A DNA stretch of 64,000 nucleotides from Candidatus Poribacteria bacterium (GCA_965217715.1 OZ244563.1:2294165-2358164); one strand, 5' to 3'. Counted from the stretch's first letter, positions 23,176 to 41,333 are shown. Program-made: numbers and translations. Notes: a model not told the origin generated them from the letters alone.

Positions 23176-23290
23176 GAGTACTTGTACAGAACGTAGGATG
23201 TTTTGTGGCATACATTTTACAAATATGGTTGTAATGTGTTCACTCCAGCAGACAACCATTGTATTAAACATCGCTCTAATGTAAATCTAA

Positions 23291-23489: not shown

Positions 23490-23521
23490 ATACAAAGTTC
23501 AATTCCTACAAGAGATTAACT

Positions 23522-24748
23522 ATGCCAAGATTTCAATATGAAGCTCTCACCTATACAGGTGCCACAGTCAACAATACTTTGGAAGCAGACTCAAAATCTG
23601 AACTTATCGCGCAATTGCGGCAGATGGGATACTGGCCAACACAGGTTGTGGAGGAAGGTGAAGCACTTGAAACAAAAACGAAGCGATTATTTAGTATCGG
23701 AACGCGCAAAATCAAATCCGCTGAAGTAGAATTTTTCACCTATCAGTTAGCAGCGTTGATAAGCGCTCACGTTGCACTCCCGCGTGCTTTGGAGGTTACA
23801 TTAGAGCAGATTACGAATCCGGAGTTTAACCGCATTATTTCGCAGGTAAAATATGATGTTGAACACGGCGCAACATTTAACGCTGCATTGGAGCAACATC
23901 CAAAAGTCTTTTCCGATCTCTACGTAAATATGGTTAAGGCTGGGGAAGCTGGTGGTGTGTTGGGAGAAGTCTTAGAACGGTTGGCAGAGTTTGCTGAAAG
24001 ACAACGTGTTCTCAAAAACCAAGTTGTTTCTGCGCTATTTTATCCAACAATTCTTTTTGGATTGATGATAACTGCAATTATCGTGCTAATGATTCTCGTT
24101 ATCCCAAAGTTCACAGAGATGTTTGAAGAGTTTGGTCGTGAACTGCCGCTTCCGACTCAAATCCTCATTTCAATATCGGATATTTTCGCAAATTTTTGGT
24201 GGTTAGGATTGCTCGCAATTAGCATTATCGCAACCGTCCTCCGACGATACCTCCGGACAGAAAACGGAAAGGTATTGCTTGATCGGATTAAGCTTAAAAT
24301 CCCACTTGTCGGGCCCGTTTTTAGCACTTTTGCTATTGTTCGGTTTACGCGTACTATGGCAACACTTTTAGAAAATGGAGTACGCATGCTTCCTGCCTTG
24401 CAAGTTGTTAAAGATACTATTGGGAATAAGGTTTACAGCAACATCATTTCTGAAGCAGAAAAAGAGGTAGAGCAGGGCTCAACACTCTCACGCGAATTAG
24501 GACAAAGCAAGGACTTCCCGACTCTTGTAACTCACATGATTGCTGTAGGTGAAGAATCTGGAGAACCGGTTAGCATGTTGGCAAAGTTGTCTGAATATTA
24601 CGACATGGAAATCAGGAAGAGTCTTGAACGGTTGACAAGTTCCATTAGTCCCTTGGTAATTCTAATTATGGGTTTGCTGATCGGATTTATCGCTGTCGCT
24701 ATGATTCTACCTATTTTTGAAGCACAACAAGTAATAGGTGGTAGTTAA
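23522..24748 (+). CDS. gspF: Type II secretion inner-membrane platform protein GspF/PilC
   Basis: AGEAGG.L..VL, YP-TM, VGEESG, three TM segments. Confidence 0.93.
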   Translation: MPRFQYEALTYTGATVNNTLEADSKSELIAQLRQMGYWPTQVVEEGEALETKTKRLFSIGTRKIKSAEVEFFTYQLAALISAHVALPRALEVTLEQITNPEFNRIISQVKYDVEHGATFNAALEQHPKVFSDLYVNMVKAGEAGGVLGEVLERLAEFAERQRVLKNQVVSALFYPTILFGLMITAIIVLMILVIPKFTEMFEEFGRELPLPTQILISISDIFANFWWLGLLAISIIATVLRRYLRTENGKVLLDRIKLKIPLVGPVFSTFAIVRFTRTMATLLENGVRMLPALQVVKDTIGNKVYSNIISEAEKEVEQGSTLSRELGQSKDFPTLVTHMIAVGEESGEPVSMLAKLSEYYDMEIRKSLERLTSSISPLVILIMGLLIGFIAVAMILPIFEAQQVIGGS

Positions 24749-24891
24749 TGCTAAACGTAAACCTTTGATGTCAATTTCTTTAAACTATCACGCAAGATAT
24801 TTGTCTAAATAGGCACAAGTCCCTTTTATGTATGTTACGGTAAGAAACACCAGAACACAAAATTCTGCAAACTAATAAGGAGTGAAACTAA

Positions 24892-25344
24892 ATGTTAAAA
24901 CAACTTAGAACAGACGAATCGGGGTTAACTCTGATTGAGTTGACAATTGTTATCGTTATTTTAGGTATTTTAGCGGCATTTATTGCACCGAGAATCGCAA
25001 ATGCACCGCAAAAGGCTAATGTTTCCAAAGCAAAAGTAGAAATTGAAAACTTATCAACAGCATTGCAACTTTATGCAACGGAGGTTGGGCAATATCCTAC
25101 CACAGAACAAGGGTTACAAGCGTTATGGCGTCCGCCCAATCCGGCTCCTCCAAATTGGCAGGGCCCTTACCTTCGAAAGCAGCTAACAGACGACCCGTGG
25201 GGTAATCCTTACGTCTACCGCAACCCCGGCACACAATATGGATACGATTTTGACCTCCTATCATACGGTAGAGATGGCAAACTGGGAGGTGTTGATTTTG
25301 ACAAGGACATCGCCAACTGGGTTGAAGAAACGACTGCTCAGTAA
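24892..25344 (+). CDS. gspG: Major pseudopilin GspG
   Basis: G|LTLIEL, YPTTEQGLQAL, WQGPYL, DPWGNPYVY. Confidence 0.95.
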   Translation: MLKQLRTDESGLTLIELTIVIVILGILAAFIAPRIANAPQKANVSKAKVEIENLSTALQLYATEVGQYPTTEQGLQALWRPPNPAPPNWQGPYLRKQLTDDPWGNPYVYRNPGTQYGYDFDLLSYGRDGKLGGVDFDKDIANWVEETTAQ

Positions 25345-25375
25345 ACCTGTAACCTTGAGTAGTAGACGACCCAGC

Positions 25376-26011
25376 ATGCTTTCTAAGTACCGAAACCCAA
25401 TTACACTGTCCAGTGAGGAAGGTTTCAGTCTTATGGAAATAATGTTGGTTTTCGCTATTATTGCGATTTTGTCTACAATGTCTATGCCTGCGATGCGGGG
25501 ATTTGCCGCATCGCGTAGGTTAACGACCTCTGCTCAGGCAATTGCTGATACACTTGCATTTGCGCGAGATATGGCAATTACCGAGCGAACGACGCACCTT
25601 GTCGTATTTGATATTGACACTAATAGATATTGGTTGGCTTCCAGTGAAACTTTTGATGTCCAAAATCCTATCACTTCAGCGGGGAAAGCCGCCAGTCCTA
25701 CAACGTCAATAGATGGGCAAACTGTGATATCCCGCACAGGGGGAATCATGGGCATACCGCAGCCGCTCAGCCAAGGTGTTACCATAGCTGCTTTAGTAAC
25801 AACACATAACGGTGTTACCCAACAAATTGCTGCTGGGGCAAATTACGTTTATTTTACGCCGACTTCAACATCGGCAGATACCATCGTGTATCTCCGAAAT
25901 GTTCGGGAAAAGGTGATGGCAATTGTTGTTGAAGCTACTACCGGACGCGCCAGTGTTGAGCAGATGTCACAGCAACAAGTTCAAACATTAGGTTTAGGGA
26001 ACGATTTGTAA
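25376..26011 (+). CDS. gspH: Minor pseudopilin GspH/FimT-like
   Basis: G|FSLMEI prepilin site; position after gspG; start moved to ATG 25376. Confidence 0.8.
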   Translation: MLSKYRNPITLSSEEGFSLMEIMLVFAIIAILSTMSMPAMRGFAASRRLTTSAQAIADTLAFARDMAITERTTHLVVFDIDTNRYWLASSETFDVQNPITSAGKAASPTTSIDGQTVISRTGGIMGIPQPLSQGVTIAALVTTHNGVTQQIAAGANYVYFTPTSTSADTIVYLRNVREKVMAIVVEATTGRASVEQMSQQQVQTLGLGNDL

Positions 26012-26012
26012 T

Positions 26013-26420
26013 ATGAAAAAACGATCCATTCTCAGTCGTGAAGACGGGTTCACTTTTGCCGAAATCCTTGTAACAATAGCGATTATGGCTGCAGTATTTC
26101 CAGCACTTTTAAAGGTGTTTAGTGATACCTCTCGCAACGTGTCTCTTTCAGATAACCGAGTGACAGCACTCTATCTGCTTGAATCTCAAATAGCAGAAAT
26201 TGAAATGGGCGGTTATCCAGAAGCTGGGCAACAGAGCGATATTATTGGAGGTTCTATCTTTGAGTGGCAATCTGTGGTATCAGATATAGAATCCGATGAA
26301 ATTGAGGGACTCCGGAGGGTTGCGGTAACTATCTCTTGGGAACATTTGGGAAGGTTGCAATCAATCAGTATGTTTACCTATATGGCTGACAGGGAAATCC
26401 AACAAGAACAAAACCAATAA
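26013..26420 (+). CDS. gspI: Minor pseudopilin GspI-like
   Basis: G|FTFAEI prepilin site, FEW, LRRVAVTISW. Confidence 0.8.
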   Translation: MKKRSILSREDGFTFAEILVTIAIMAAVFPALLKVFSDTSRNVSLSDNRVTALYLLESQIAEIEMGGYPEAGQQSDIIGGSIFEWQSVVSDIESDEIEGLRRVAVTISWEHLGRLQSISMFTYMADREIQQEQNQ

Positions 26421-26501
26421 AATCAACACTTGCTTGTATAAAACCAAATTAACGATAATTATTCTGTTTTCGGAGGGTAGGTACGGTTTCTTAACCGTAC
26501 T

Positions 26502-26672
26502 TATGGTGAATTATTGAAATAATTATGCACTTCACTTGTGAATCAACGCCGAATACGCGTGTGGTATTCGGCGGGAGCGATTTCCGAATCGCGACGAAAC
26601 GCCTTGATAGTCGGGAATCGGAGCTCCCGACTACAGTTCAAGAATGTCCAATTAATTCTAAAATCTACCATA
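26502..26672. mobile_element. MITE family B, copy 2, carrying hairpin and REP cargo
   Basis: tatggtgaatta / taattctaaaatctaccata; a further REP lies just outside at 26477-26500. Confidence 0.72.
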
Positions 26673-26729
26673 ATAGATTGGAATCAAGTTAATTTTGGTA
26701 TAAGAAAACGGATGATGGGACGCTGAATT

Positions 26730-27608
26730 ATGAGAAATCTAATAAAGAAGTGTGAAAGTGGTCTTACCCTCGTTGAAATGCTTACTGCCGTGACTATTAT
26801 CGTCATTATGGGTGGTACCACTTATGCTGTCTTCAATACAGCAATAGACGCATACCATCGCACCCAATCGAAATTGATTCAATCACAGCGTTGCCGTGTA
26901 GCTATGCACCACTTAACCACAGATTTAAAACAGATACAAGCTGATACATCTGACGAAATGTTGGTACTCTATTCAGAAGACCGTCCGACTGCATCTGGTG
27001 ATATGGATATACTCAGTTTTGTGACGCTGGTAAAGACTGATCCAGACCCGTTTGTAGCGGAGGTGGATGCTTCTTACATTTTCAGTACACCTCTTTTGAG
27101 CGATGTCCGGCGAGTTGCTTATTATGTCGGTCTGAAGGTGCCTATAGCGGAACTGCGGAGTGAGAATTTCATTCCGCCGCCTTATACTGCATCACAAGAA
27201 CCGAGACAAAACATATCTGGGCAGGAAGAAATCTTTACTCTTTATCGCATTGTGACTACAGCTCTGAATCCAGAATTGGCTATTAACGCATTTATGAATG
27301 CTGGAACGATTCCAACAGTAGATGAAAATGGCATGCCGATTCATTTTAGTATAGATCCGCTAATTGATGGAATTGTTAACTTTGACCTCAAGTATCTTGA
27401 TGAAGAAGCACTGCCTTATGACTCCTGGGAACAGGCAGACGTGATCCCGACGGCTGTCCAAATGCTAATTTCCGTGATAGATGAGGACAGACAAGAGTCG
27501 GTGTCAACGCAAAATTTTGCGCAGAACCCAGGCGTTATAACACCGGGTGCCTTGACACAGGCGACTATGGTGTATTTGCCGCCAAGTGCAAACACTTCTG
27601 AACAATAA
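26730..27608 (+). CDS. gspJ: Minor pseudopilin GspJ-like
   Basis: G|LTLVEM, LTTDL, VAYY, W....IPTAVQM. Confidence 0.8.
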   Translation: MRNLIKKCESGLTLVEMLTAVTIIVIMGGTTYAVFNTAIDAYHRTQSKLIQSQRCRVAMHHLTTDLKQIQADTSDEMLVLYSEDRPTASGDMDILSFVTLVKTDPDPFVAEVDASYIFSTPLLSDVRRVAYYVGLKVPIAELRSENFIPPPYTASQEPRQNISGQEEIFTLYRIVTTALNPELAINAFMNAGTIPTVDENGMPIHFSIDPLIDGIVNFDLKYLDEEALPYDSWEQADVIPTAVQMLISVIDEDRQESVSTQNFAQNPGVITPGALTQATMVYLPPSANTSEQ

Positions 27609-27684
27609 GCTGAACTTCAAAGGATATTGTGGTCATTTCTGCTGCCAATACACTTCACTTCCAAGAAAACGTTGAGGAAAACCG

Positions 27685-29361
27685 ATGAGAAAATACCTTA
27701 ATTATTCATTCAAACATAGAGACATTACTCCCAACCAACAGATGAGCAGAACTACATCAACGGCGTTTTGTTTTTGTGATTCAAACGGATTATCACTTGT
27801 CTCAACGCTTTGGATTTTGACGATCCTCTCTGTCTTAGCAATGCAGCTGCTCTACTCATTTCAGCTTGAAAATAAGGCACGGACCAACTTTGTAGACAGG
27901 GTAAAGTATAACTTTGCAGCTAAAGCCGGATTTGAGTGGGGTGTCGCAAAATTGCGAACCGATGAAACTAATTTCGACTCGCTTGGTGAAACATGGGCGG
28001 AACCGGTTCAGCAACAAATTGATGACGGTGTCCAAATTGGTAGAATGTTAAACTATCAGGTTACCATAACTGATGAAGCGTCAAAAATTAACATCAATTC
28101 CGCACCGGAAGACACTATTCGTAATTTACTCGCTTTTTTAGGGGCCCAACCAGAAAACAATCAAACTGGTGATCTTGCAGCGCGGATCGTTGAAGGACGA
28201 CCGTATCGCACTGTCCGAGATGTCGCAAGTGTTGAAGGGATGACACCAGATGTCCTTTATGGCATACAACAGCAAACAGTAGCGGCACCCGAGACGAGTG
28301 GGTCTGAAGATATTCAGCCGCAAACACAAATAACAATGGGGGCAAATGGTCTCGTTAACATGGCAACGATCTATTCCGTTGATGCGAATACTGATTCTAA
28401 TGGGCAACAAAGAGTTAATATCAATTCTGCAAACGCACAGCAATTAAGACAAATTCAATCTAATAACAATCAATCAGTTTTTTCGCAAGCTGAGGCGAAT
28501 GCGATTATCCAGAAACGCGAATCTGAGGAATTTAAGGGGATTTCTGCACTGTTAGATGTCTCGGCTGTTTCGGATAATGTTTTTAATAATATACGTAATC
28601 AAATCACTGTTGAAACTGCCTCTGTTCAAAATACCGGTTCTGGAAATTCCAATAATCAAGGTGGTGGAAATAATCCATTTGGTGACGATGGAAATAATCC
28701 ATTTGGTGACGATGGAAATAATCAAGGTGGTGGAAATAATCAAGGTGGCGGCAGGGACAATAATGGTAATGGTGGTAATGGTGGTAATGGAAACTCGCTG
28801 CTTAATATTAATACGGCTGACTCAGAAGCACTTCAAGAACTTCAAGGAATTGATGAGGGGATTGCACAACGGATTATCGCACACCGCAATTCCCAAGGAT
28901 CATTCCAAAACATTGACGCCATTAAAGATGTAAGGCTAACAACAGTCCAAGAGTTTGCTGGAATTGCTGATAAAGTAACAGCAAATGGAGGACAAACTGT
29001 AAACGGATTAATCAACATAAATACTGCACCTTTAGAAACTTTACAACTGTTACCGGGGATGGATCAAACAAAAGCGCAAGCAATCATTGACCGCCGTGAA
29101 GAGGAAAGCCCAGACGCACAGAATACATCAGAAGATGCGATTCAAGGCAACCCTTTCAGTGACATTGGGCAACTTTTAGATATTGAAGAAATTGATAATC
29201 AAACATTCCGAGAAGTTGTAGATTGGGTGACCTACCGTTCACAAGGGTATCGTATCGAATCTGCTGCGGTTGATATGAGTGGAAAAGTCATCGCAACGTA
29301 TGTTGGTATCGTTGTGCGAAGTGAAAGCCAATTGAATGTTCCGTATTGGCGACAGGATTAG
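27685..29361 (+). CDS. gspK: GspK-like pseudopilin with multiple ComEA-like helix-hairpin-helix modules
   Basis: G|LSLVSTLWIL (no E5), DEASKININ, repeated (V/L/I)NIN(S/T)A..L..L.G motifs, GN-rich linker; start could be 27742. Confidence 0.85.
   Translation: MRKYLNYSFKHRDITPNQQMSRTTSTAFCFCDSNGLSLVSTLWILTILSVLAMQLLYSFQLENKARTNFVDRVKYNFAAKAGFEWGVAKLRTDETNFDSLGETWAEPVQQQIDDGVQIGRMLNYQVTITDEASKININSAPEDTIRNLLAFLGAQPENNQTGDLAARIVEGRPYRTVRDVASVEGMTPDVLYGIQQQTVAAPETSGSEDIQPQTQITMGANGLVNMATIYSVDANTDSNGQQRVNINSANAQQLRQIQSNNNQSVFSQAEANAIIQKRESEEFKGISALLDVSAVSDNVFNNIRNQITVETASVQNTGSGNSNNQGGGNNPFGDDGNNPFGDDGNNQGGGNNQGGGRDNNGNGGNGGNGNSLLNINTADSEALQELQGIDEGIAQRIIAHRNSQGSFQNIDAIKDVRLTTVQEFAGIADKVTANGGQTVNGLININTAPLETLQLLPGMDQTKAQAIIDRREEESPDAQNTSEDAIQGNPFSDIGQLLDIEEIDNQTFREVVDWVTYRSQGYRIESAAVDMSGKVIATYVGIVVRSESQLNVPYWRQD
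28651..28790 (+). repeat. Coding tandem repeats (NNQGGG / NNPFGDDG / GNG)
   Basis: ggaaataatccatttggtgacgat x2, aataatcaaggtgg x3, ggtaatggt repeats. Confidence 0.9.
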
Positions 29362-29398
29362 CAAGAGGAACAACTAAAAGATAAACGAGGTTTTATAA

Positions 29399-31105
29399 AT
29401 GGCAAAGAATCAGGTTGTAGCAATAGATATCGGTTCAGCCGCAGCGAAAATAGTACATATTGAAAAAATTTCAGGTACACTACATTTAATTAACGCTGGT
29501 GTTATTTCTTATTCAGACCCTGACAATCCTCAACATATCTCTGAAGTTGTCCGGAAGTTGTGGAATCAACTTGGAATCAAACAGAACTTTTTTAATAAAC
29601 ATAAGATGGAAATTGGGATAGCGATTCCTCGTAGATTTGCTTCCACGAAACGTCTATCCAATTTGCCGCCATCAACAACGGATGCACAGTTGCCTTCAGT
29701 CGTAGAAATGGCTGCAGAAACGGAGCTGCCGTTTCAAACTGAAGAGTCCGTTTATACATATCACGACGTTCAACGGACAGTAGAAACGCTTTCTGTCGAA
29801 TTAGTTTCAAGTCGCCGTGACACTGTAGCAAGGTATATGGGGTTCCTTAACGAGACAAAGGTTACACCTTCAGCGGTGATCCCATCTATGTTAGCCACTG
29901 CGACTGTAGCAAGCAAGGCGTTATCTAATACTACAGCACGGACAATCATCATTGACATTGGGGCAGAATATACCGATTTCTGTTTAATGCGCGGACCTAC
30001 TTTGGAATTTTCTCGTTCATTTTCCATCAGTGGTAATCAGTTAACACGAACCTTGATGATGGATACAGAGTTGGATTCTGAAGCAGCAGAACAGGAAAAA
30101 CAACATATCCCAGCACATCAAATACCTACTCGGACCTGGACAAGAAGTTTTATTGGAGAATTAGAACGTTCTATTGATGCGGCCGAGAGGGAGATTAACG
30201 ATGATGAACCCGAAGCGATTGCGGAAATATGGTTATGTGGAGGTGGCTCACGCGTTCCAGAATTGGCTGAGGCATGTCAGGAACAACTTCAAATCCCAAC
30301 CAGACTTTGGAACCCCCTCCAAACTGGTGCTTTGGACACAAGTAATACATCAACACAAGTACTTGAAACATACGGGGATGCTTTAACTGTTCCTTTGGGG
30401 GTTGGAATACATCTTTTAGAAGTTGAAGAACCTGTGTCGTTGTTACCGACCGAAGTCGGGGTGAAACGTGTAGAATCTACCCGTAAACACCAACAACTGA
30501 TCACAGCAGGTATTGCGGGAATCGTACTTCTTGTACTTGTTCTTTCCGGTGTCACATGGAGCAGATCGCAAAAAGCCAAAGTGGCTTTATTAGATGATCA
30601 AATAGCTACATTTGGGAGTCTACAAGTTGATGCGAATAAACAACTTGCTCTTGAACTGGTTTTAGCGGATAAATTAACCCATCAAATTTCTCCGTTGGAC
30701 ATTCTACATGCTCTCAGCACACTTTTTAAAGATAGAACAAAGGTGGCTTGGAAGACATTTGAAGTTAACAATCTGGATGATCTCCAAAAAACACGTATAA
30801 CATTTAGTTTACAAGCAAGTTCGTATGAGGCTTTTAACTCCATGTTGGGTACCCTTAATAGTTCAAAACTTTTTAGTAATATCGAGCCGGGAGAAGTCAC
30901 GGTAACAGGTGATGAACGAAGACCTACCTATGAAGTGAAGATAAACTGTCGATTGAGTCGTGAAGCAACCCAAAAGTTTGCACAAACACGTTATCCGAAA
31001 CCTGTTTTTGAAACTAAAATGGCGGAGGAGAAAGATGTGGACGTTTCGCCGCCTGAAAATTCTGAAAACTCAAAAGATAAATCAGAAGAAGAAAACGAAG
31101 AATAG
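29399..31105 (+). CDS. PilM (actin-like)-PilN/GspL fusion protein
   Basis: AIDIGS, IIDIG, LCGGGSRVPEL, followed by a TM segment and periplasmic domain. Confidence 0.85.
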   Translation: MAKNQVVAIDIGSAAAKIVHIEKISGTLHLINAGVISYSDPDNPQHISEVVRKLWNQLGIKQNFFNKHKMEIGIAIPRRFASTKRLSNLPPSTTDAQLPSVVEMAAETELPFQTEESVYTYHDVQRTVETLSVELVSSRRDTVARYMGFLNETKVTPSAVIPSMLATATVASKALSNTTARTIIIDIGAEYTDFCLMRGPTLEFSRSFSISGNQLTRTLMMDTELDSEAAEQEKQHIPAHQIPTRTWTRSFIGELERSIDAAEREINDDEPEAIAEIWLCGGGSRVPELAEACQEQLQIPTRLWNPLQTGALDTSNTSTQVLETYGDALTVPLGVGIHLLEVEEPVSLLPTEVGVKRVESTRKHQQLITAGIAGIVLLVLVLSGVTWSRSQKAKVALLDDQIATFGSLQVDANKQLALELVLADKLTHQISPLDILHALSTLFKDRTKVAWKTFEVNNLDDLQKTRITFSLQASSYEAFNSMLGTLNSSKLFSNIEPGEVTVTGDERRPTYEVKINCRLSREATQKFAQTRYPKPVFETKMAEEKDVDVSPPENSENSKDKSEEENEE

Positions 31106-31139
31106 AAACAATAAAACTAATCTACTTGCAATTTGCAAT

Positions 31140-31261
31140 TATAGTAAAGCATAAAAAAATAGATATTTTGTCTCCAAATGTTACGTGGATTCTCCTTCGG
31201 TAAGCAAGGTTCCCTAACCTCGCTTGTTCAGAATGTCTTGTTAATTCTATAATCTACTATA
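31140..31261. mobile_element. MITE family B, copy 3, with a degenerate REP
   Basis: tatagtaaagcata / gaatgtcttgttaattctataatctactata (matches the right end of copy 2); gtaagcaaggttccctaacctcgc inside. Confidence 0.62.
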
Positions 31262-31302
31262 GTTGTACATAAAACCTACAAAAGTGGGTAAGGAAACAGA
31301 AA

Positions 31303-32631
31303 GTGGAATTAAATCTTGAACTTACAAGGCAAACTAAGATTTTGCTTGGCGTTTTGGGAGCTGTCCTTATTATTGCCGTTGCGACGCAATGGGGACCGGG
31401 ACTAAACAGTTTGATTTCCAATACCGACATGGAAAACAAACAACAAACCTTGCAAACATCTAAAGATTTGATAGCAGCATCAAAAATCTTGAAACCTATT
31501 GCAACCAGTTTATACAAAAAGGCTGGACTCGCAGACAATGAACAAGATAAAACTATTTTTGATGGAGCTTATTCTGATACGGTTATCCGTGAAAAAATTG
31601 ACTCAATCGTGAAAGAAGCTGGTATTCCCAAGAATTACCAATTAGATGTGGATCCAGTCCCAGGTAAAAAATTAGAGAAAATTTCAACGCAGGCACGACA
31701 AAACCTTGTTGTTTATCTTTATCAAAGCAAGTTGGAAACCGAACGAGATACGCTCAATGCTGAAATTGAAGCTGAACTTCAAGCGCAAACCGAAGTTGAA
31801 GCTGAACTTCAAGCGCAAACCGAAGTTGAAGAGGATGCTTTGGATATGTTGATGAATGCATGGTTAGATGAAGCAGGTGAGGACACCGAAACACCGAAAG
31901 AAGCTGAGAAATCTGACGAGGATCCGATTAATGAAAAATCTGATGAGGATCAGGTAACCGAAAAGTCTGATGAAAATTCCCTGGAGGCAAATGTAGAAGA
32001 GGATGTTGAAACACCACAAACACCTCAAGAGTCATACAAAAATCAAATCGATTCGCAAAATCCGGTGGATACTGAATCCCAATGGGAATTTACATCTTTT
32101 CCGGATACCATACCAAGTTCAATGCGAATTGAGTTGATCGAACTTATTATTTCTATGGCGGAGCAACATCTTGTAGGTGCTGAAATAAAAATGTTTGAAA
32201 AAGAATTCTATACTTCACAAACGGAGACAACCTCCGGGTTTTTCGGTATTGGCGCTAAAAAACCTATAACCGAGATCGGCTTTTATCCAAATAGCCAGAT
32301 TTCAGCCAAATTCACAGAACTCATTGATGATTATGGCGAAGAACTGGACAAGGAAAAACTTACCGTAGAACTACTTGGATATCTTGAAAAGATTGAATCA
32401 CAGATTACAGAACTTTCTCGGAAGTTACAAATGGCTCCCGTCACCTATTCGCCTGAAAGTTATACCGTAAAAATGAAGTTTAAAGCGGAACTTGATAAAC
32501 TCGTTAACTTTAATCGACTTATTGAAACCAGAATCAAATGGTTAATGGTAAGAGATCTCCAAATTTCCGCTGATAACAAAGATAATAAAATGAATGTGGA
32601 CATTCTTATGATTGCGGGGGTTTATCAATAA
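31303..32631 (+). CDS. GspM/PilO-like protein with a large acidic insertion
   Basis: N-terminal TM; C-terminal YTVKMKF..L.NF...IE....LMVRDLQI; position between gspL and gspD; 30-bp tandem repeat at 31766-31831. Confidence 0.65.
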   Translation: MELNLELTRQTKILLGVLGAVLIIAVATQWGPGLNSLISNTDMENKQQTLQTSKDLIAASKILKPIATSLYKKAGLADNEQDKTIFDGAYSDTVIREKIDSIVKEAGIPKNYQLDVDPVPGKKLEKISTQARQNLVVYLYQSKLETERDTLNAEIEAELQAQTEVEAELQAQTEVEEDALDMLMNAWLDEAGEDTETPKEAEKSDEDPINEKSDEDQVTEKSDENSLEANVEEDVETPQTPQESYKNQIDSQNPVDTESQWEFTSFPDTIPSSMRIELIELIISMAEQHLVGAEIKMFEKEFYTSQTETTSGFFGIGAKKPITEIGFYPNSQISAKFTELIDDYGEELDKEKLTVELLGYLEKIESQITELSRKLQMAPVTYSPESYTVKMKFKAELDKLVNFNRLIETRIKWLMVRDLQISADNKDNKMNVDILMIAGVYQ

Positions 32632-35600
32632 TGAAAATGTGCAGAAATGATGTTTGTCCGATGTGGGTACAGAAACTTAATATATACTTGAGTGTATTGG
32701 TGTGTTTCGGATTATTCGTTCTCATTCCGGGAAATCTGTTGGCACAGCAGCGGGGTGGTCAAGGCACGCTGGAAGTTGCTGAACGGGATGAGGAAACTGG
32801 CGAAGCAACAAGATTTAACTTTGATTTTACGAGCCGAGAACTCAAGAACGTGTTTGAATGGTTATCTCGTGAAACCGATCTCACCGTTATCGCCAGTGAA
32901 AATGATATTCAAGGTAAGCAGTTTGCACTTATTAACTTGAATAACGTGACACTTGATGAAGTCATTGAAAAAATCAAAACTGTCCTCGCGCAGTATAACC
33001 TAACCTTTGTTAGAGTTGATAGCACCCTTCTTGTCACTACCTTTGAAAAAGCAATTGTGATGAATGTGCCTGTCAAGATTATAGAGGCTAATCCTGAACT
33101 GGTTGAAATGACTGATGAGATTCAGACTTACATTATCCGATTGGTAAATGCGTCTGCATCGGAGCAAGCGGGTGTATTGAAACCTTTATTGAATAAACAA
33201 GCAAACATATTTGCTGATACGATGACGAATGCGCTTGTCATCACCGATGTGTCATCTAACGTCCGCAGGATCGTATCGATTTTACAATTTGCTGATGAAG
33301 GTGAGAGGAACCCATTAAAGATCGCTATTATCCGATTAACTTATGCGGATGCTGAAGCTTTAGAAGACACACTTGAAAATGTATTTGAAGATAACGAAGC
33401 AGATAACAAACCGTCACCAACGCAAGTTGCTATGGACCCCGAGGAGCTCAGACAGACTATTGAACAAGGCTTAGGTGTGCCATTAGTTGAGGGGATGGTT
33501 GAGGTTGAGGCAGATAGCAACTCAAACTCCATCATTCTAAAAGCCGCTGAGGACAACTTGGTTATTCTTAGAGAAATCATACGTCATCTTGACATTGCGC
33601 CGGATCTTTCAACGGATATCCGAACATATCGACTGGATTATGCCTCAGCTGAAGATGTTGCCACAACGCTTGAAGAAATTATTACTGGTGAAAGTGGCCG
33701 AGGCGGTAGTAGAAGAAGTTTTGACAGGGAAGATATTTTGGAGATGATGACGTATCGACGGAGACAAGGGGACTCCAGCGATCTTTTTCAGGGAATTGTC
33801 GGTTTGGTAAATGTTTCTCGAAATGATAGGCTGAACATCGTTATTGTTTCCTCTGACCCGCGCAATTTCACCATCATTGAGAAGATTATTGAAGTCCTTG
33901 ATCAAAAGCAGACGGAAAATGAGTTCAAGATGTATCTACTTGAGTTCGCAGATGCTGCAACCCTCAAAGAGAATCTAACTGCCCTTTTTGAAGGCGAGGA
34001 TACAGGGGGTGATAGCTACCGGTATAATTGGTGGGACCGAGATAGAAGGGACTCAAACCAACAAGATAGTGGTTTTGGGGTGCAAGGTACTGTTCACATT
34101 GTTGAAGATATTAGGCTTAATGCATTGCTCATTTCTACTTCTTCTCAGAATTTTCCGATGATTGACGATCTGATCAAAAAACTTGATGTCAACCTACCCG
34201 ACCAAGAATGGGGTTCAAGAATCTTTTATCTGAAGTATGCTGATGCTGAAAATGTGGCAAATCTGATTAACTCACATTACCAAGGGAACCAAGACGATTT
34301 TAGTGGAGGAGATAGCTACTATTATTACCGCTATTATCTTCCTCAGCGTCAATCAACACCGCAAGCACAAGGTGCCCTGGCAGGCAACGTTGCTGCCCAA
34401 CCTTTGACGAGCCACAATGCGCTTATAGTATCTACAGGGACGAAACGTAACTTCGAACTTATCCAAGACTTTATTAAACGACTTGATATACCTACACCCG
34501 AAGTAATGATAGAAACCACCGAAATAATTCGCCTTGAATATGCAACCGCGGATTCTATTGCTCAGGTGCTGGCACAAGTCTGGCAAGACCCGCAAGCCGA
34601 AGATGATGAGGGGTTTGGTTTTCGTAGATTTTTCGGTTCAGGAAACCAAGACGAAGAACCGGCTGACATCAATTCACTATTCGGTAAGGTTACTGTCTAT
34701 GCTGATCCAGATACGAACTCCCTTATCGTCACAACTCGACGCCGCTATCTTGATCAGGTTAGAGCTCTTGTCAAAAAGCTTGATTTCGTTCGAGGACAGG
34801 TGCGCATTGATATTAAGATACTTGAAGTTACCCTTGATGAAACCACAAAACTCGGTATTGAAGTGGCTGCTAATGAAAAGAAACTTGGTGGTCTTGAACT
34901 CGCTCCAGGGAATCCATTGGTCGGAAACACAAAGGCTGAACTCGGACTCACTCAGGAAATCTCCGGATTTAACTATAGTTTGGTAACGAAAGAATATATG
35001 GCTCTCTTACACACCCTTATTCGTGAAAATAAAGTCAAGACGCTTTCAACACCCACAATCACGACACGTGACAGTCGTCCTGCTACATGGAGTAGTGGAC
35101 GCCGTATTCCATACCTACAAAGTGTTGATACCAATAGCATCCTTGGCGATACCGCTACACAACCACTCTTCAACTACGATTTTATTGATCCACCTGTCGG
35201 CATTAACATATCCCTCACGCCTTTTATCGCAAGATCGCAGGCAGAGGAAAATGGAAAACGAACAATCGGATTAGATATTACAAACATCAGTGCAAGCAAC
35301 TTTATTGAATTTACTGATTTTAATGCGCCGATAACTGACGATAACTCTCTCAGTGCCTATGTTGACGTTGAAGATGGACAGAAACTTATCGTTGGTGGCA
35401 TCATTCGCAAGAAACAGAAACAGGTGGAAAACAAAGTTCCCTTCCTCGGGGATATTCCTTTACTTGGAAGACTCTTCAAAAGCACCGAAACTGAAGTCCA
35501 AGATACAGAGATCGTTTTCATTATTACACCTCATATTTTTGACATAAAACAACCGGATGATATTGAGAAGCAGAAAGAAATAGCTGATGATTGGCAAAAA

Positions 35601-35636
35601 AATGGGATGGAAGATTTAGAGAATTCAATAAAATAA
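32631..35636 (+). CDS. gspD: Secretin GspD, copy 1
   Basis: N0 plus six NolW-like repeats, QVRIDIKILEV, KVPFLGDIPLLGRLF, IVFIITPHI. Confidence 0.93.
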   Translation: MKMCRNDVCPMWVQKLNIYLSVLVCFGLFVLIPGNLLAQQRGGQGTLEVAERDEETGEATRFNFDFTSRELKNVFEWLSRETDLTVIASENDIQGKQFALINLNNVTLDEVIEKIKTVLAQYNLTFVRVDSTLLVTTFEKAIVMNVPVKIIEANPELVEMTDEIQTYIIRLVNASASEQAGVLKPLLNKQANIFADTMTNALVITDVSSNVRRIVSILQFADEGERNPLKIAIIRLTYADAEALEDTLENVFEDNEADNKPSPTQVAMDPEELRQTIEQGLGVPLVEGMVEVEADSNSNSIILKAAEDNLVILREIIRHLDIAPDLSTDIRTYRLDYASAEDVATTLEEIITGESGRGGSRRSFDREDILEMMTYRRRQGDSSDLFQGIVGLVNVSRNDRLNIVIVSSDPRNFTIIEKIIEVLDQKQTENEFKMYLLEFADAATLKENLTALFEGEDTGGDSYRYNWWDRDRRDSNQQDSGFGVQGTVHIVEDIRLNALLISTSSQNFPMIDDLIKKLDVNLPDQEWGSRIFYLKYADAENVANLINSHYQGNQDDFSGGDSYYYYRYYLPQRQSTPQAQGALAGNVAAQPLTSHNALIVSTGTKRNFELIQDFIKRLDIPTPEVMIETTEIIRLEYATADSIAQVLAQVWQDPQAEDDEGFGFRRFFGSGNQDEEPADINSLFGKVTVYADPDTNSLIVTTRRRYLDQVRALVKKLDFVRGQVRIDIKILEVTLDETTKLGIEVAANEKKLGGLELAPGNPLVGNTKAELGLTQEISGFNYSLVTKEYMALLHTLIRENKVKTLSTPTITTRDSRPATWSSGRRIPYLQSVDTNSILGDTATQPLFNYDFIDPPVGINISLTPFIARSQAEENGKRTIGLDITNISASNFIEFTDFNAPITDDNSLSAYVDVEDGQKLIVGGIIRKKQKQVENKVPFLGDIPLLGRLFKSTETEVQDTEIVFIITPHIFDIKQPDDIEKQKEIADDWQKNGMEDLENSIK

Positions 35637-35812
35637 TAGCAGAATTCCATTACATCCCTTACCTTTGTATATATACTCAGTTGGTCTTCTAAACGCAAAC
35701 TTAAAGGAAGAAATCTGTTTCCAGATAATGTCATAAGTGCTAATGCGGTGGTGTTAAAACATCATCTTGACATGCCAAACACACTTTAGAATCAAATAGT
35801 TGTAAAATTCGA

Positions 35813-38800
35813 ATGATTACGAGGGAATTGTCCATGATATTGAAATATAGCAATTTGTTTAAAACATTATCACGACAACACTGCAAATTATACCTAATTT
35901 ATTTGGTGTGTTTCGGATTATTCGTTCTTATTCCGGGAAATCTGTTGGCGCAGCAGCGGGGTGGTCAAGGCACGCTGGAAGTTGCTGAACGGGATGAGGA
36001 AACTGGCGAAGCAATACGGTTTAACTTTGACTTTACGAGTCGAGAACTCAAGAACGTGTTTGAATGGTTGTCTCGTGAAACCGATCTCACTATTATCGCC
36101 AGTGAAAATGATATTCAAGGTAAGCAGTTTGCACTTATTAACTTGAATAACGTGACACTTGATGAAGTCATTGAAAAAATCAAAACTGTCCTCGCGCAGT
36201 ATAACCTAACCTTTGTTAGAGTTGATAGCACCCTTCTTGTCACTACCTTTGAAAAAGCAATTGTGATGAATGTGCCTGTCAAGATTATAGAGGCTAATCC
36301 TGAACTGGTTGAAATGACTGATGAGATTCAGACTTACATTATCCGATTGGTAAATGCGTCTGCATCGGAGCAAGCGGGTGTATTGAAACCTTTATTGAAT
36401 AAACAAGCAAACATATTTGCTGATACGATGACGAATGCGCTTGTCATCACCGATGTGTCATCTAACGTCCGCAGGATCGTATCGATTTTACAATTTGCTG
36501 ATGAAGGTGAGAGGAACCCATTAAAGATCGCTATTATCCGATTAACTTATGCGGACGCTGAAGCTTTAGAACAAACACTTGAAAATGTATTTGAAGATAA
36601 CGAAGCAGATAACAAACCGTCACCAACGCAAGTTGCTATGGACCCCGAGGAGCTCAGACAAACTATTGAACAAGGCTTAGGTGTGCCATTAGTTGAGGGG
36701 ATGGTTGAGGTTGAGGCAGATAGCAACTCAAACTCCATCATTCTAAAAGCCGCTGAGGACAACTTGGTTATTCTTAGAGAAATTATCCGTCATCTTGATA
36801 TCGCACCAGGTTTGTCAACCGATATTCGCACCTATCGTCTCGAATATGCCTCAGCTGAAGATGTTGCCACAACGCTTGAAGAGATCATCACTGGTGAAAG
36901 TACCCAGGAGGGTGGTAGAAGAAGTTTGGACAGGTGGTCTGCTGAGAAGATGCGTGCATATCGACGGGAACGTGGTGAGTCAGGTGATCTATATCAAGGA
37001 ATTGTAGGGACGGTAAATCTTTCTCGAAATGATAGGTTGAACATCGTTATTGTCTCTTCTGACCCGCGCAATTTCACCATCATTGAGAAGATTATTACTG
37101 AACTTGATCAAAAGCAGACGGAAAATGAGTTCAAGATGTATCTGCTTGAGTTCGCAGATGCTGCAACCCTCAAAGAGAATCTAACTGCCCTTTTTGAAGG
37201 CGAGGATACGGGTGGGGATAGCAATCGGTATAATTGGTGGGACAGGGGCAGAGATAATAACACAAACCAAGATAGTGCTTTTGGAGTGCAAGGAACTGTT
37301 CACATCGTTGAAGATATTAGACTCAATGCATTGCTCATTTCTACTTCTTCTCAGAATTTTCCGATGATTGACGATCTGATCAAAAAACTTGATGTCAACC
37401 TACCTGACCAAGAATGGGGTTCAAGGATCTTTTATCTGAAGTATGCTGATGCTGAAAATGTGGCAAATCTGATTAACACACATTATCAAGGGAACCAAGA
37501 CGATTTTAGGGGAGGTAGTAGCTACTATTATTACCGCTACTATCTTCCGCAACGTCAAACAACGCCGCAAGCACAAGGTGCGCTTTCAGGGAACGTTGCT
37601 GCACAACCTTTGGCGAGCCACAATGCCCTTATTATATCTACAGGGACGAAACGTAACTTCGAACTTATCCAAGACTTTATTAAACGGCTTGATATACCTA
37701 CACCCGAAGTAATGATAGAAACCACCGAAATAATTCGCCTTGAATATGCAACAGCGGATTCCATGGCTCAGGTGTTAGCACAAGTCTGGCAAGACCCGCA
37801 AGCCGAAGATGATGAGGGGTTTGGTTTTCGTAGATTTTTCGGTTCAGGAAACCAAGACGAAGAACCGGCTGACATCAATTCACTATTCGGTAAGGTTACT
37901 GTCTATGCTGATCCAGATACGAACTCCCTTATCGTCACAACTCGACGCCGCTATCTTGATCAGGTTAGAGCTCTTGTCAAAAAGCTTGATTTCGTTCGAG
38001 GACAGGTACGCATTGATATTAAGATACTTGAAGTCACCCTTGATGAAACCACAAAACTCGGTATTGAAGTGGCTGCTAGTGAAAAGAGACTCGGTGGTCT
38101 TGAACTCAGTCCGAGCAACCCACTTATTGGTAATACAAATGCTGAACTCGGTCTTGCCCAAGAGATTTCAGGATTCAACTATAGTTTGGTAACGAAAGAA
38201 TATATGGCACTGCTACACACCCTTATCCGTGAAAATAAAGTCAAGACGCTTTCAACACCCACAATCACGACACGTGACAGTCGTCCTGCTACATGGAGTA
38301 GTGGTCGGCGTATTCCATACCTACAAAGTGTTGATACCAATAGCATCCTTGGAGACACCGCTACACAACCACTCTTCAACTACGATTTTATTGATCCACC
38401 TGTCGGCATTAACATATCCCTCACGCCTTATATTGCAAGGTCGCAGGCGGGGGAAGATGGGAAACGGACAATCGGTTTAGATATTACAAATATCAGTGCC
38501 AGTAACTTTATTGAGTTTACCGATTTTAATGCGCCGATTACAGATGATAACGCTCTCAGTGTCTATATTGACATTGAAGATGGACAGAAACTTATCGTTG
38601 GGGGCATTATCCGTAAAAAACAGAAACAGGTGGAAAACAAAGTGCCTATACTTGGTGATATTCCTTTACTCGGGAGACTCTTCAAAAGCACCGAAACTGA
38701 AGTCCAAGACACGGAGATCGTTTTCATTATTACACCTCACATCATAGATATTAAGAATCCTGAAGACATAAAAAAACTGAGGCAGAAAGAGGATGATTGG

Positions 38801-38842
38801 CGGAAAAATGGAATGAAAGATATAGAGAATTCTGACAAATAG
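35813..38842 (+). CDS. gspD: Secretin GspD, copy 2 (near-identical tandem paralog)
   Basis: Colinear with copy 1; KVPILGDIPLLGRLF; start codon uncertain. Confidence 0.93.
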   Translation: MITRELSMILKYSNLFKTLSRQHCKLYLIYLVCFGLFVLIPGNLLAQQRGGQGTLEVAERDEETGEAIRFNFDFTSRELKNVFEWLSRETDLTIIASENDIQGKQFALINLNNVTLDEVIEKIKTVLAQYNLTFVRVDSTLLVTTFEKAIVMNVPVKIIEANPELVEMTDEIQTYIIRLVNASASEQAGVLKPLLNKQANIFADTMTNALVITDVSSNVRRIVSILQFADEGERNPLKIAIIRLTYADAEALEQTLENVFEDNEADNKPSPTQVAMDPEELRQTIEQGLGVPLVEGMVEVEADSNSNSIILKAAEDNLVILREIIRHLDIAPGLSTDIRTYRLEYASAEDVATTLEEIITGESTQEGGRRSLDRWSAEKMRAYRRERGESGDLYQGIVGTVNLSRNDRLNIVIVSSDPRNFTIIEKIITELDQKQTENEFKMYLLEFADAATLKENLTALFEGEDTGGDSNRYNWWDRGRDNNTNQDSAFGVQGTVHIVEDIRLNALLISTSSQNFPMIDDLIKKLDVNLPDQEWGSRIFYLKYADAENVANLINTHYQGNQDDFRGGSSYYYYRYYLPQRQTTPQAQGALSGNVAAQPLASHNALIISTGTKRNFELIQDFIKRLDIPTPEVMIETTEIIRLEYATADSMAQVLAQVWQDPQAEDDEGFGFRRFFGSGNQDEEPADINSLFGKVTVYADPDTNSLIVTTRRRYLDQVRALVKKLDFVRGQVRIDIKILEVTLDETTKLGIEVAASEKRLGGLELSPSNPLIGNTNAELGLAQEISGFNYSLVTKEYMALLHTLIRENKVKTLSTPTITTRDSRPATWSSGRRIPYLQSVDTNSILGDTATQPLFNYDFIDPPVGINISLTPYIARSQAGEDGKRTIGLDITNISASNFIEFTDFNAPITDDNALSVYIDIEDGQKLIVGGIIRKKQKQVENKVPILGDIPLLGRLFKSTETEVQDTEIVFIITPHIIDIKNPEDIKKLRQKEDDWRKNGMKDIENSDK

Positions 38843-38915
38843 CCTTTTGTTCAAAAACTTACGAATAGTTCCAATTACCCACAGCGGAAGCATGTGCTGT
38901 TACCGCTTTTTCTTT

Positions 38916-39587
38916 TTACCGTATATTCCGATACAATTTCGCAAGTCGTTCCAATGAGAAACCTAAAAAGAAGAGTAAAGTAATAAGCCCGTTTATTGCT
39001 GTTGTTCGGACAATACCATTCGTCTCCCACCGCCGTGCTGATATATGGATGCAAGGTTTAACCATCTTCGTTTTTCCTAACCCGCGCAATGCCTTGGAAA
39101 ACCCCATCTCCTCCATAATCGGAACTTCTGGAAAACCACCGATACGTTCAAAGTCACTCCTTTTCACAAAAATCCCGCTATCCCCATAAAAGACCTTTAG
39201 ATATTTACCGCGCATGTCTGCAGAAATCTCAATAATACGATACAGAATACTCTTTCCATCAATCTTTTGAAGAAATCCACCGCCGACATATCCCGACGAT
39301 AGTGTCGTTTCGACTGCAGCAAATGCCCCTGACTCAAGCCAAACATCTGCATGTAGAAAAACGAGAATTTCACCTGTCGCTGCCGCCGCACCGGCATTCA
39401 ACTGTTTAGCACGCCCCCGCTCAGATTTAATTACCTTCCCATATTTTTTTGCTATGCTGACAGATTCGTCAGTACTGCCGCCATCTACAATAAGGAGTTC
39501 ATGATTCCTCAATTCAGGTTGAAGTCGAGAGAGCGTTTTTTCCAAAATCTTTGCTTCATTCAGAATCGGAATAATAACTGAAATCAT
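38916..39587 (-). CDS. GT2 glycosyltransferase (TIGR04283-like)
   Basis: ISVIIPILNE, VDGGSTD, GRAKQLNAGA, FLHAD, YGD, SARRW. Confidence 0.9.
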   Translation of the reverse strand: MISVIIPILNEAKILEKTLSRLQPELRNHELLIVDGGSTDESVSIAKKYGKVIKSERGRAKQLNAGAAAATGEILVFLHADVWLESGAFAAVETTLSSGYVGGGFLQKIDGKSILYRIIEISADMRGKYLKVFYGDSGIFVKRSDFERIGGFPEVPIMEEMGFSKALRGLGKTKMVKPCIHISARRWETNGIVRTTAINGLITLLFFLGFSLERLAKLYRNIR

Positions 39588-39617
39588 ATCTCTTTAACAC
39601 ACAACAAGAGCAACATA

Positions 39618-41333
39618 CTAAGAAACTTTTTTGACATACTGATTCAGCGCCAAGATTGGAAAAACAGAGGCATAAATCGGATCGCTATACCCACCAATTA
39701 CTTCCCAATAAATACCGACACAACTCTCTTGCCAAGAACCATTTTCTCTTTGATTCTTTATGAGAAACTCAACTCCTTTCTCAGCAGCCCGATTTTCTCC
39801 ATCAGCAAGTAAAAGGGCATAAGTACACCATGCTGTCTGTTCCACGGTGCTATCAGTTGGGTTACCAAACATGTCTTCTCCCCAACCACCGTCCACATTT
39901 TGTGTCTGTTCCAACCAACGAATACCACGTGCAATCTCTGGCACATCTCCAAAACCTGCTTTAATGAACGCAACAAGCGCACATGCTGTCCCGTAGGTGC
40001 GTTTTGCTAACCAAAGATCATCCCAGTAGCCATCACGATGAATATTAGCACGAAGCCATTGAACACCACGGTTTACAAACATTTCATTGTCACCGTCTGC
40101 AAGTAATGCCTCAATTGCATGTGCGGTAATGCTAACACATCCAACATCACCTTGCCCAGGTTGATACGTGCTCCAACTGCCATCTGTCCCCTGATTCTGT
40201 TTCAACCACTCAATCCCGCGTTGAATAGCACTGTTTGCATCTGCGGATGTAAGTTTTGCTCGAATTATAGCAAGGGTTGCCAAAGCAGTATCATCTGCAT
40301 CACTCGGAAGAGAACTATCGCGCATGCCAGAAAACGCCCACCCACCGTTGTCATTTTGATGATCAACAAGCCATTGTGCTGCTTTTTTGACCGGCTCCGA
40401 GTTATCGGTATAATTTGCTTCAATCTCTGTTAAGGCGATAATGCTAAGGGCTGTGTCCCACACGTTGAGATTTATGGCTTCTCTACAGCCACCGTCTGGA
40501 TTCTGCGTGGCACGCAGCCATTCAATACCTTTTTCAATTAACAGTTGAATCTCAGAATCATTACTACTATTGTTGTGGAATTCAATCAGCGCCAAAACAG
40601 AGAGTGCAGTGATATAATTCACACGAAACCAACTGCCATCACTCAAAACACGTGCTTTCAACCAAGCCACCAACGCATTTATGATTTCAAAACGTTTTGT
40701 TGTATTTAATTCTATTAAAATAAAGACTGGAACTAAAGTATGTTGTTCAGCAATAAACAACTCTTCAAAAAGAGATGTGTTAAAAAGGTCTACGGGAGGA
40801 AGTTTGTTTCTCGGAGGCTTCAACAAGACACGCAGAATTGGGATGCGCGTTAAGAGTTTGACAAGTCTCATCAACGGCAATGCTTTTTTCGAAACGGTCA
40901 ATTTTTGCCAGTCAAATCGATTGAAAGATGCGTAGGAAAGTTTAACTAAAGCGAGGTCAAGCGGGGACTGTGGAATGCAGGACAGTGTTTCCTGAAGCTG
41001 CGGTGTTGACACATTTTCAGATGCTTGTTCCAAAATCAATTGCGTAAACAACGTTGCATCCGGATTTGATTGATTTGCAGTATCCAATCCCCACGCACCA
41101 TCTTCGTTCTGGTTTTTTATGAACCAATCAATCAACGCTTTTTCTGGTGTTTGTCCTTGCGCAAGTTGAATCCAAGCATAAGCACAAGACGGAAACGTAC
41201 TTGAGGAAAGTTGTCCTTCAAAGTTTCCGTCCACATGCTGCTGTGTCAGTAATAAATCAATAGCATGTGCTAAGGCAGATGTAGTCTGTTCCTTAATTTT
41301 TTCTGTTAGTTGGGGAGGTTGGTTTTGTCTCAT
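39618..41333 (-). CDS. Squalene-hopene cyclase-like class II terpene cyclase
   Basis: DADDTA (DXDD) motif, VWDTAL, about seven QxxDGxW (QW) repeats, YGT, STVEQTAW. Confidence 0.85.
   Translation of the reverse strand: MRQNQPPQLTEKIKEQTTSALAHAIDLLLTQQHVDGNFEGQLSSSTFPSCAYAWIQLAQGQTPEKALIDWFIKNQNEDGAWGLDTANQSNPDATLFTQLILEQASENVSTPQLQETLSCIPQSPLDLALVKLSYASFNRFDWQKLTVSKKALPLMRLVKLLTRIPILRVLLKPPRNKLPPVDLFNTSLFEELFIAEQHTLVPVFILIELNTTKRFEIINALVAWLKARVLSDGSWFRVNYITALSVLALIEFHNNSSNDSEIQLLIEKGIEWLRATQNPDGGCREAINLNVWDTALSIIALTEIEANYTDNSEPVKKAAQWLVDHQNDNGGWAFSGMRDSSLPSDADDTALATLAIIRAKLTSADANSAIQRGIEWLKQNQGTDGSWSTYQPGQGDVGCVSITAHAIEALLADGDNEMFVNRGVQWLRANIHRDGYWDDLWLAKRTYGTACALVAFIKAGFGDVPEIARGIRWLEQTQNVDGGWGEDMFGNPTDSTVEQTAWCTYALLLADGENRAAEKGVEFLIKNQRENGSWQESCVGIYWEVIGGYSDPIYASVFPILALNQYVKKVS

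Follow-up and report, generated by a model that had tools for sequence, protein, structure and literature searches.

Analysing a stretch of 64,000 nucleotides (nt) from Candidatus Poribacteria bacterium (GCA_965217715.1, OZ244563.1:2294165-2358164; hereafter the window), we find two intact GspD-type secretin genes in tandem at the end of a type II secretion system (T2SS) operon. The genes, secretin A (copy 1; 32631-35636, + strand) and secretin B (copy 2; 35813-38842, + strand), are mosaics of one another: tracts identical in every base alternate with strongly divergent patches, and gene conversion between the two is strongly supported. We consider it very likely that the pair is an old tandem duplicate of the gspD gene of the genome's one T2SS, that it has been converted recurrently, and that a few islands have escaped the conversion. 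A first-pass annotation of the window had proposed gene conversion accompanied by diversification of substrate- or phage-contacting loops. The conversion part of that proposal stood, while the diversifying loops gave way to conserved, copy-specific islands.

Both open reading frames (ORFs) are full length, as the first-pass annotation had read them, coding for 1001 amino acids (aa) in A and for 1009 aa in B counted from its first ATG. The two proteins align over 1010 columns without internal gaps, and 915 of the columns are identical. At the DNA level, A and B align at an offset of 3206 nt over 32680-35633 without a gap, and 249 of the 2954 positions are mismatched (91.6% identity); the cores of the two copies are about 95% identical. 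The longest exact run, tract 1, spans 463 nt (A 32887-33349, B 36093-36555, + strand) and takes in N0 and N-domain 1 up to a part of N-domain 2 (aa 86-240). The second, tract 2, spans 230 nt (A 34572-34801, B 37778-38007, + strand) and holds the insert loop of N-domain 6, called P6 here. Both runs lie near the lengths estimated in the first-pass annotation, and all five divergent patches that it quoted are present as written. When the 249 mismatches were placed randomly 10,000 times, the longest run had a mean of 68 nt and a maximum of 143 nt. The mismatches are clumped (index of dispersion 6.9 in 60-nt bins), and the divergence is non-uniform along the gene, as had been supposed. Using the polymorphic sites of a clade of 12 genomes that includes the present one (1614 sites, 24 sequences), we found that A and B agree over up to 234 consecutive sites, whereas the longest runs in permutations were 36 on average and 108 at most.

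The synonymous divergence (dS) between A and B follows the same mosaic, ranging from 0.01 to saturation. Counted pairwise by the Nei-Gojobori method, dS was 0.010 in tract 1 and 0.019 in tract 2, 0.14-0.29 in intermediate segments, 0.58 in patch P1, 0.66 in aa 866-970, 1.04 in aa 316-350, 1.24 in patch P2 and 1.77 in patch P3, and it was saturated in the C-terminal tail. For comparison, A or B against the orthologs gave a whole-gene dS of 0.58-0.75. Third-codon positions in the identical tracts vary in the remaining 11 clade genomes (142 of 155 in tract 1, 71 of 77 in tract 2 and 39 of 41 in 33456-33577), so the identity of A and B there is not due to constraint. Two divergent segments had been missed in the first-pass annotation, aa 316-350 and aa 866-970; they differ almost only synonymously, with nonsynonymous divergence (dN) of 0.039 and 0.037, respectively.

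We sampled 24 genomes of the same genus and 16 genomes from other families of the order. In a DNA tree of 48 copies, A and B are sisters with a support of 100, and the majority of the remaining pairs cluster within a genome or within a tight group of species. The tree of aa 26-325 joins a genome's own copies as sisters in 11 of the 12 clade genomes, and the twelfth (G013) falls in an unresolved group with the G016 pair. Forcing the 12 copy-1 genes into one clade over this region lowered the log-likelihood by 2094 and was rejected by the approximately unbiased (AU) test (p 7e-49). The longest exact runs were 647 nt in G016, 263 nt in G001, 245 nt in G011 and 239 nt in both G013 and G020. The copies of G015, G004, G017 and G022 are 74-76% identical throughout, with exact runs of at most 44 nt, and those of the last three genomes are without conversion tracts. 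Since the exact runs and the tract ends differ by genome, the conversion is recurrent and lineage-specific. It is strongest on the N-terminal third, from N0 to N-domain 2. Its direction can be read in tract 2 of the present genome, where both copies carry the copy-1 type of P6; the 230-nt tract was thus copied from A to B. In summary, exact runs, the dS contrast, the trees with paralogs clustering by genome, the AU test and the per-genome tracts all bear out the gene conversion that had been proposed.

To locate the islands, we used a copy-specificity score S, the cross-copy minus the mean same-copy distance between genomes, in a 25-codon sliding window over the 12-genome clade. The score is near zero over most of the gene and peaks at aa 1-25 (0.29), 351-400 (0.15 and 0.08), 551-575 (0.06), 651-675 (0.14) and 976-1001 (0.08). 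Two disjoint sets of six genomes gave the same windows (Spearman 0.65). A tree of the concatenated internal islands and the tail splits the 12 copy-1 genes from the 12 copy-2 genes with supports of 94/94 and 98/94; it illustrates the copy split and does not test it, because the islands were chosen by the same score. Performing nearest-sequence comparisons in the leader, aa 316-350, P1 and the tail, we find that A goes with copy 1 of other species and B with copy 2.

The n-region of the leader (A 32631-32696, B 35834-35902; S 0.29) is copy-specific, and downstream of it the hydrophobic core and the predicted cleavage region are identical in A and B. Island P1, the insert loop of N-domain 3 (aa 355-396; A 33693-33818, B 36899-37024), is copy-specific in 12 of 12 clade genomes. 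P6 carries a copy-specific type in 11 of 12, the exception being the present genome. Island P5, the insert loop of N-domain 5 (aa 551-585; A 34281-34385, B 37487-37591), gives a weak copy-specific signal. The C-terminal tail (aa 971-1001; A 35541-35633, B 38747-38839) is copy-specific in a part of the clade. All of these features, and the two patches that follow, lie on the + strand. P2, the insert loop of N-domain 4 (aa 456-490; A 33996-34100, B 37202-37306), and P3, a loop at the start of the secretin domain (aa 751-780; A 34881-34970, B 38087-38176; dN/dS 0.08), are divergent between A and B here and show no copy-specific pattern across the clade genomes (S about 0). A recent import of P2 and P3 from other species was considered and rejected, the nearest sequences being still 16-21% different.

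The leader, P1, P6 and tail types are common to the same copy across up to 12 species, and the duplication is therefore old. This sharing supports a duplication that predates the species splits within the 12-genome clade, and tentatively one that is older still. Two adjacent full-length secretin genes were present in 16 of the 24 genus genomes, with three in G021, and both genes are intact in all 16; five of these carriers are single-contig genomes (G005, G016, G020, G021 and G023). Six further genus genomes are single-copy, one has fragments at contig ends only, and one (73% complete) is without a match. In the 16 genomes of the other families, no second adjacent copy was found. Homologues with 68-86% identity are recorded under the name Candidatus Poribacteria bacterium. 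A quick tree of the neighbouring gene of 442 aa, which stands directly upstream of A, nests the single-copy genomes among the two-copy ones with three copy-number changes, at least two of them forced by well-supported branches. This nesting suggests one old duplication followed by at least two losses. Within 1.5 kb downstream of the secretin in the six single-copy genus genomes and two outgroups, we found no remnant of a second copy.

Other arrangements occur in the genus. The single-contig genome G021 carries three tandem secretins (L045, 1662-11350), of which the second and the third have a copy-2-type leader and P1. In G004, G017 and G022 (L034, L042 and L046), the copy-1-type leader and P1 stand in the downstream gene, i.e. 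in the opposite order, and their upstream gene carries a loop of a third type, similar to the downstream copies of G005, G020 and G009. The order may have been inverted, the duplication may have arisen independently, or the pair may be what is left of an ancestor with three copies.

Both copies are GspD family members by their C-terminal domain, their N-domains, the equivalog score of A and the T2SS gene context. Scanning with Pfam, we found the Secretin domain (PF00263) at 1e-34 in A (aa 796-970) and at 9.2e-34 in B, both exceeding the 27.5-bit cut-off. Each copy has six Secretin_N stretches (PF03958; 7.8e-65 in A and 2.8e-65 in B), at aa 167-219, 233-325, 331-425, 433-520, 529-623 and 630-718, and an STN/N0 match that remains under the Pfam cut-off (20.7-27.2 versus 28.4 bits). 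In an NCBIfam scan that covered A, to which B is 91% identical at the protein level, the GspD model TIGR02517 reached 391.1 bits against a cut-off of 351.35. The PilQ model gave 212.6 bits, under its 284.35 cut-off, and the SctC and MshL models also scored lower than GspD. The nearest solved proteins by phmmer are Pseudomonas aeruginosa XcpQ (5WLN, E 3e-32) and GspD of E. coli K-12 (5WQ7, E 5.5e-30). With these, A and B share the C-terminal secretin domain, an STN-like N0 followed by Secretin_N domains, and a gsp operon. Unlike them, A and B are about 1000 aa long, compared with roughly 620-650 aa in the solved chains, have six Secretin_N domains instead of three, and form two tandem copies in one operon without any other secretin in the genome. 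Secretin_N domains 2 to 6 measure 88-95 residues each and match 64-68 positions of the 69-position Pfam profile, so that each domain holds an insert of roughly 25-31 residues. Passages of PMC10329019 describe a pilotin-binding S domain in some GspD proteins, and the tail of A and B appears to occupy its position; there, unlike such GspD proteins, A and B would end in a predicted 30-residue C-terminal helix. Throughout the whole genome (5.66 Mb in 16 contigs, 92.9% complete), A and B are the only two Secretin-domain matches and one GspE-type ATPase scores above its cut-off, which argues for one machine with two pore isoforms. GspD secretins build outer-membrane channels of roughly 15 subunits for the export of folded proteins, a putative role for A and B.

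The full-length AlphaFold2 model of the protein is weak as a whole, with a mean predicted local distance difference test (pLDDT) of 58.9 and a predicted template modelling score (pTM) of 0.31, and it was therefore used for secondary structure and low-confidence loops only. In this model, Secretin_N domains 3 to 6 are each predicted to hold an insert (P1, P2, P5 and P6, respectively) that separates the first helix from the second strand, and the segments of pLDDT below 50 match the patches: aa 355-366 and 380-386 in P1 (around a predicted helix, 366-378), 455-481 in P2, 553-584 in P5 and 653-677 in P6. P3 coincides with a low-confidence loop predicted at aa 751-784, at the start of the secretin domain, and a single helix is predicted after that domain (aa 977-1000). 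Judged by the alignment with 5WLN and 5WQ7 and by the membrane-proximal description in passages of PMC10329019, P3 is probably located close to the barrel's outer-membrane end. The first-pass annotation had taken the patches for loops in contact with substrates or phages. P1, P2, P5 and P6 belong to periplasmic Secretin_N domains and are not surface loops; only P3 could be membrane- or surface-proximal.

No segment showed dN/dS above 1 between A and B, the maximum being 0.63 in P1. Across orthologs, the ratio of nonsynonymous to synonymous differences (pN/pS) was between 0.15 and 0.37 in all loops measured: for copy 1 and copy 2, respectively, 0.16 (equal to N0 and N1) and 0.37 in P1, and 0.26 and 0.36 in P6. 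The tail gave 0.25 and 0.22, and the pore core 0.04 and 0.06. These figures are coarse pairwise counts made without site models, by which selection on single sites could be missed. Rather than rapid diversification, they indicate that two distinct loop versions are each held under purifying selection.

We propose that homologous recombination between the direct repeats would repeatedly transfer tracts in a non-reciprocal manner, and that local divergence would abort, or selection would remove, any transfer that enters P1; for the other islands this would hold less strictly. The internal islands may persist by selection against converted variants, helped by divergence that would block heteroduplex extension, and a lower rate of conversion at repeat edges may account in part for the persistence of the leader and the tail. 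Both isoforms would dock on the same inner-membrane platform through the homogenised N0 and N1. Because N0, N1 and the nearly identical pore core are homogenised, both isoforms should fit the same platform and could fit each other; sharing docking and pore core, they would differ only in the periplasmic vestibule loops and in the tail at the S-domain position. Such isoforms could build mixed rings or two separate kinds of ring, with the differences lying in vestibule loops and tails. Alternative or heteromeric channels had also been suggested in the first-pass annotation.

The mosaic could in principle have come from assembly, i.e. two strain haplotypes of a single gene assembled in tandem or exact tracts made by polishing. 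The source is probably a metagenome-derived genome, in 16 contigs, and short-read contigs break within the repeat. Nevertheless, the tandem recurs in 16 of 24 relatives, five of them assembled in one contig, and the leaders and tails of A and B belong to types that are conserved in copy 1 and copy 2, respectively, of other species. The junction itself, from the 3' end of A over the spacer to the 5' end of B, is bridged by contigs from three studies, at 35507-35980 in X1 (0 differences), 35615-35980 in X5 (0) and 35507-35824 in X6 (3). In run X1, the contig over tract 1 (32887-33577) has a depth of 424, and seven copy-specific contigs are of nearly equal depth (204-233); the depth is about doubled over tract 1, as expected of a sequence that occurs twice. 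Bins left uncovered (e.g. 34610-34830 and 36157-36598 in X1) fall in the exact tracts, the collapsed contig having been placed at one of the two sites. Relatives, bridging contigs and depth thus rule against a single gene, and we hold an artefact to be extremely improbable. Nearly as improbable, in our judgement, are independent recent duplications in each species instead of one old duplication with concerted evolution. The whole-gene and N-terminal trees, which pair the copies by genome, would fit them, and so would the opposite order of leader and P1 types in G004, G017 and G022. Against them, the copy-2 leader and P1 types are common to the 12-genome clade and by motif extend to G021 and, for the leader, to G015; the island tree splits by copy; and dS in the unconverted segments is equal to or above that between species.

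More weight has to be given to two accounts of the islands. One is recent homogenisation combined with positive, diversifying selection on loops contacting substrates or phages, as the first-pass annotation had suggested. The amino-acid differences between A and B are indeed concentrated in loops, and P1 has the highest dN/dS. However, no segment exceeds 1, the dS of 0.58 to saturation makes the patches old rather than fast-evolving, a given copy shows the same loop types in up to 12 species, and the loops lie in periplasmic N-domains; we regard this account as improbable. In the other, the second secretin is redundant and the islands are neutral leftovers, conversion failing at the repeat edges and in loops that have drifted by indels. 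Less frequent conversion at the edges would fit the leader and the tail, which stand at the repeat ends, and fast loops could become self-protecting barriers. In 6 of 12 genomes, one tail type is shared by both copies; the distinct P6 of B has been lost from the present genome with neither gene broken; 6 of 24 relatives get by with one copy and keep no remnant nearby; and the loops are low in model confidence. On the other side, P1 is under the same constraint as N0 and N1 in copy 1, and its pN/pS is below 1 in copy 2 as well. P1 is copy-specific in 12 of 12 genomes though conversion reaches both its flanks, and both genes are intact in 16 of 16 tandem genomes. The neutral account is in our view unlikely, with some real chance of being right. 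Several other points also weigh against an old duplicate with islands held apart. The island tree displays the very score by which the islands had been selected, a circularity that is lessened only by the split sample and by the independent choice of P1, leader and tail in the first-pass annotation. The copies of G021 and G015 still pair by genome in that tree. Beyond the 12-genome clade, the age of the duplication rests on motif likeness and one quick neighbour-gene tree, and the structure model is of low confidence. Finally, two short contigs of about 97% identity came from one RNA library (X14), at 32578-32812 (6 differences) and at 38309-38478 (5), too little to claim transcription. Taking these points together with the evidence above, we retain the old, recurrently converted duplicate as the very likely reading.

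Two of the short-read contigs deserve mention in their own right. An X5 contig of 909 nt (37521-38429) has the A base at 21 of 21 listed differences between 37552 and 38035; since its differences total only about 22, it has to agree with B past 38035. It could be from a strain with a longer A-to-B tract, or it could be a de Bruijn chimera through shared 31-mers. In the third study, an X6 contig (32865-33676) has five differences at sites where A and B agree, with a depth of 18.6 against 6-12 for most copy-specific neighbours and 22.7 for one. It hints that both copies of this strain carry the same strain-specific changes.

E. coli GspD-alpha and GspD-beta sit in two separate T2SS gene clusters. 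They are Klebsiella-type and Vibrio-type secretins with different outer-membrane targeting routes and, like A and B, are two GspD isoforms of one organism that differ in defined loops; the E. coli pair also differs in the use of the C-terminal S domain for targeting to the outer membrane, as passages of PMC10329019 describe. The Poribacteria copies, in contrast, are adjacent, 92% identical, belong to one machine and exchange sequence. Among bacterial paralogs, tufA and tufB are a case of concerted evolution by gene conversion. Such paralogs have been surveyed (Wang and Chen 2018, PMC6053082), and partial concerted evolution itself is a known process according to passages of that paper. A and B resemble the surveyed paralogs, as those passages present them, in that the likeness within a genome exceeds that between orthologs of different species, synonymous sites are identical, and the process is recurrent and lineage-specific. 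They differ in being homogenised in part only, with internal islands that hold copy identity across species. The main text of that survey, leaving its supplements and database aside, does not contain the words secretin or secretion. In a non-exhaustive search of the literature, supplements excluded, we met no account of conversion between tandem secretins or of a T2SS operon with two secretins.

The upstream part of the operon (21298-32631, + strand) was assigned by Pfam and NCBIfam scans. It starts with GspE (start 21298; T2SSE 2.5e-130, Pfam), GspF (start 23522; T2SSF 1.4e-58, Pfam) and GspG (start 24892; T2SSG 5e-38, Pfam). GspH-, GspI- and GspJ-like pseudopilins follow (starts 25238, 26013 and 26730) with weaker NCBIfam or Pfam matches; several of the upstream pseudopilin matches score under the curated cut-offs. 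The next gene codes for a GspK-like pseudopilin (27685-29361, + strand) with a T2SSK Pfam domain and a weaker NCBIfam match. This protein has three ComEA-type helix-hairpin-helix (HHH) repeats (PF12836, 2.7e-34) in addition to the T2SSK domain, and its 558 aa are long for GspK. A PilM-like protein starts at 29399. The ORF of 442 aa between it and A (31303-32631) gave no match in Pfam or NCBIfam, and is kept upstream of the secretin with 51-59% identity across the genus and 31% in G037, a genome of another family of the order. It may be a GspC- or PilNOP-like partner of the secretins. Its stop codon overlaps the start codon of A (TAATG), an arrangement of translational coupling.

The true start of B, which the first-pass annotation had also missed, is most likely its second ATG, at 35834, and would give 1002 aa; this ATG is homologous to the start of A and has GAGGGA 7 nt upstream. 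A weak alignment of A and B persists for about 40 nt upstream of both starts, so the duplicated unit took in the ribosome-binding region, and the spacer between the genes (35637-35833, + strand) holds a diverged remnant of it (about 35800-35833). Scanning 35400-39200 for promoters and terminators, we counted 12 promoter-like sites (8.5 ± 2.8 expected) and 2 terminator-like sites (3.1 ± 1.8 expected), none of either kind in the spacer. With counts near the expectation and none in the spacer, the scan is uninformative on a separate transcription of B. Outside the operon, a TolC-like outer membrane efflux protein and an HlyD-family protein are encoded upstream (13802-17106, + strand). A family-2 glycosyltransferase gene and a squalene-hopene-cyclase-like gene follow B directly in convergent orientation (38916-41333, - strand).

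To our knowledge, secretins are regarded as homo-oligomers with one gene per machine. The tandem offers a natural test case for the mixing of secretin rings. A scheme of putative mixed rings would have conversion keep the interfaces, the pore core and N0/N1 interchangeable, while selection would keep the vestibule loops, above all that of N-domain 3, and the tails isoform-specific. We rate this scheme as quite unlikely. If it were true, the loops and tails of the isoforms would tune gating, substrate range or outer-membrane targeting, and the pair would be the first natural heteromeric secretin.

Most of the genus keeps two secretin genes for one T2SS, in which the docking domains and the pore core are shared and a few loops and a tail are held apart. 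With 12 species that show independent tracts around the same protected islands, the locus is a well-replicated bacterial case of partial concerted evolution. The islands mark residues that can be swapped to probe the insert loops of secretin N-domains and the C-terminal tails. Poribacteria are mostly uncultured sponge symbionts, and since these genes code for the only secretion pore, the finding may be of relevance to the interaction with the host.

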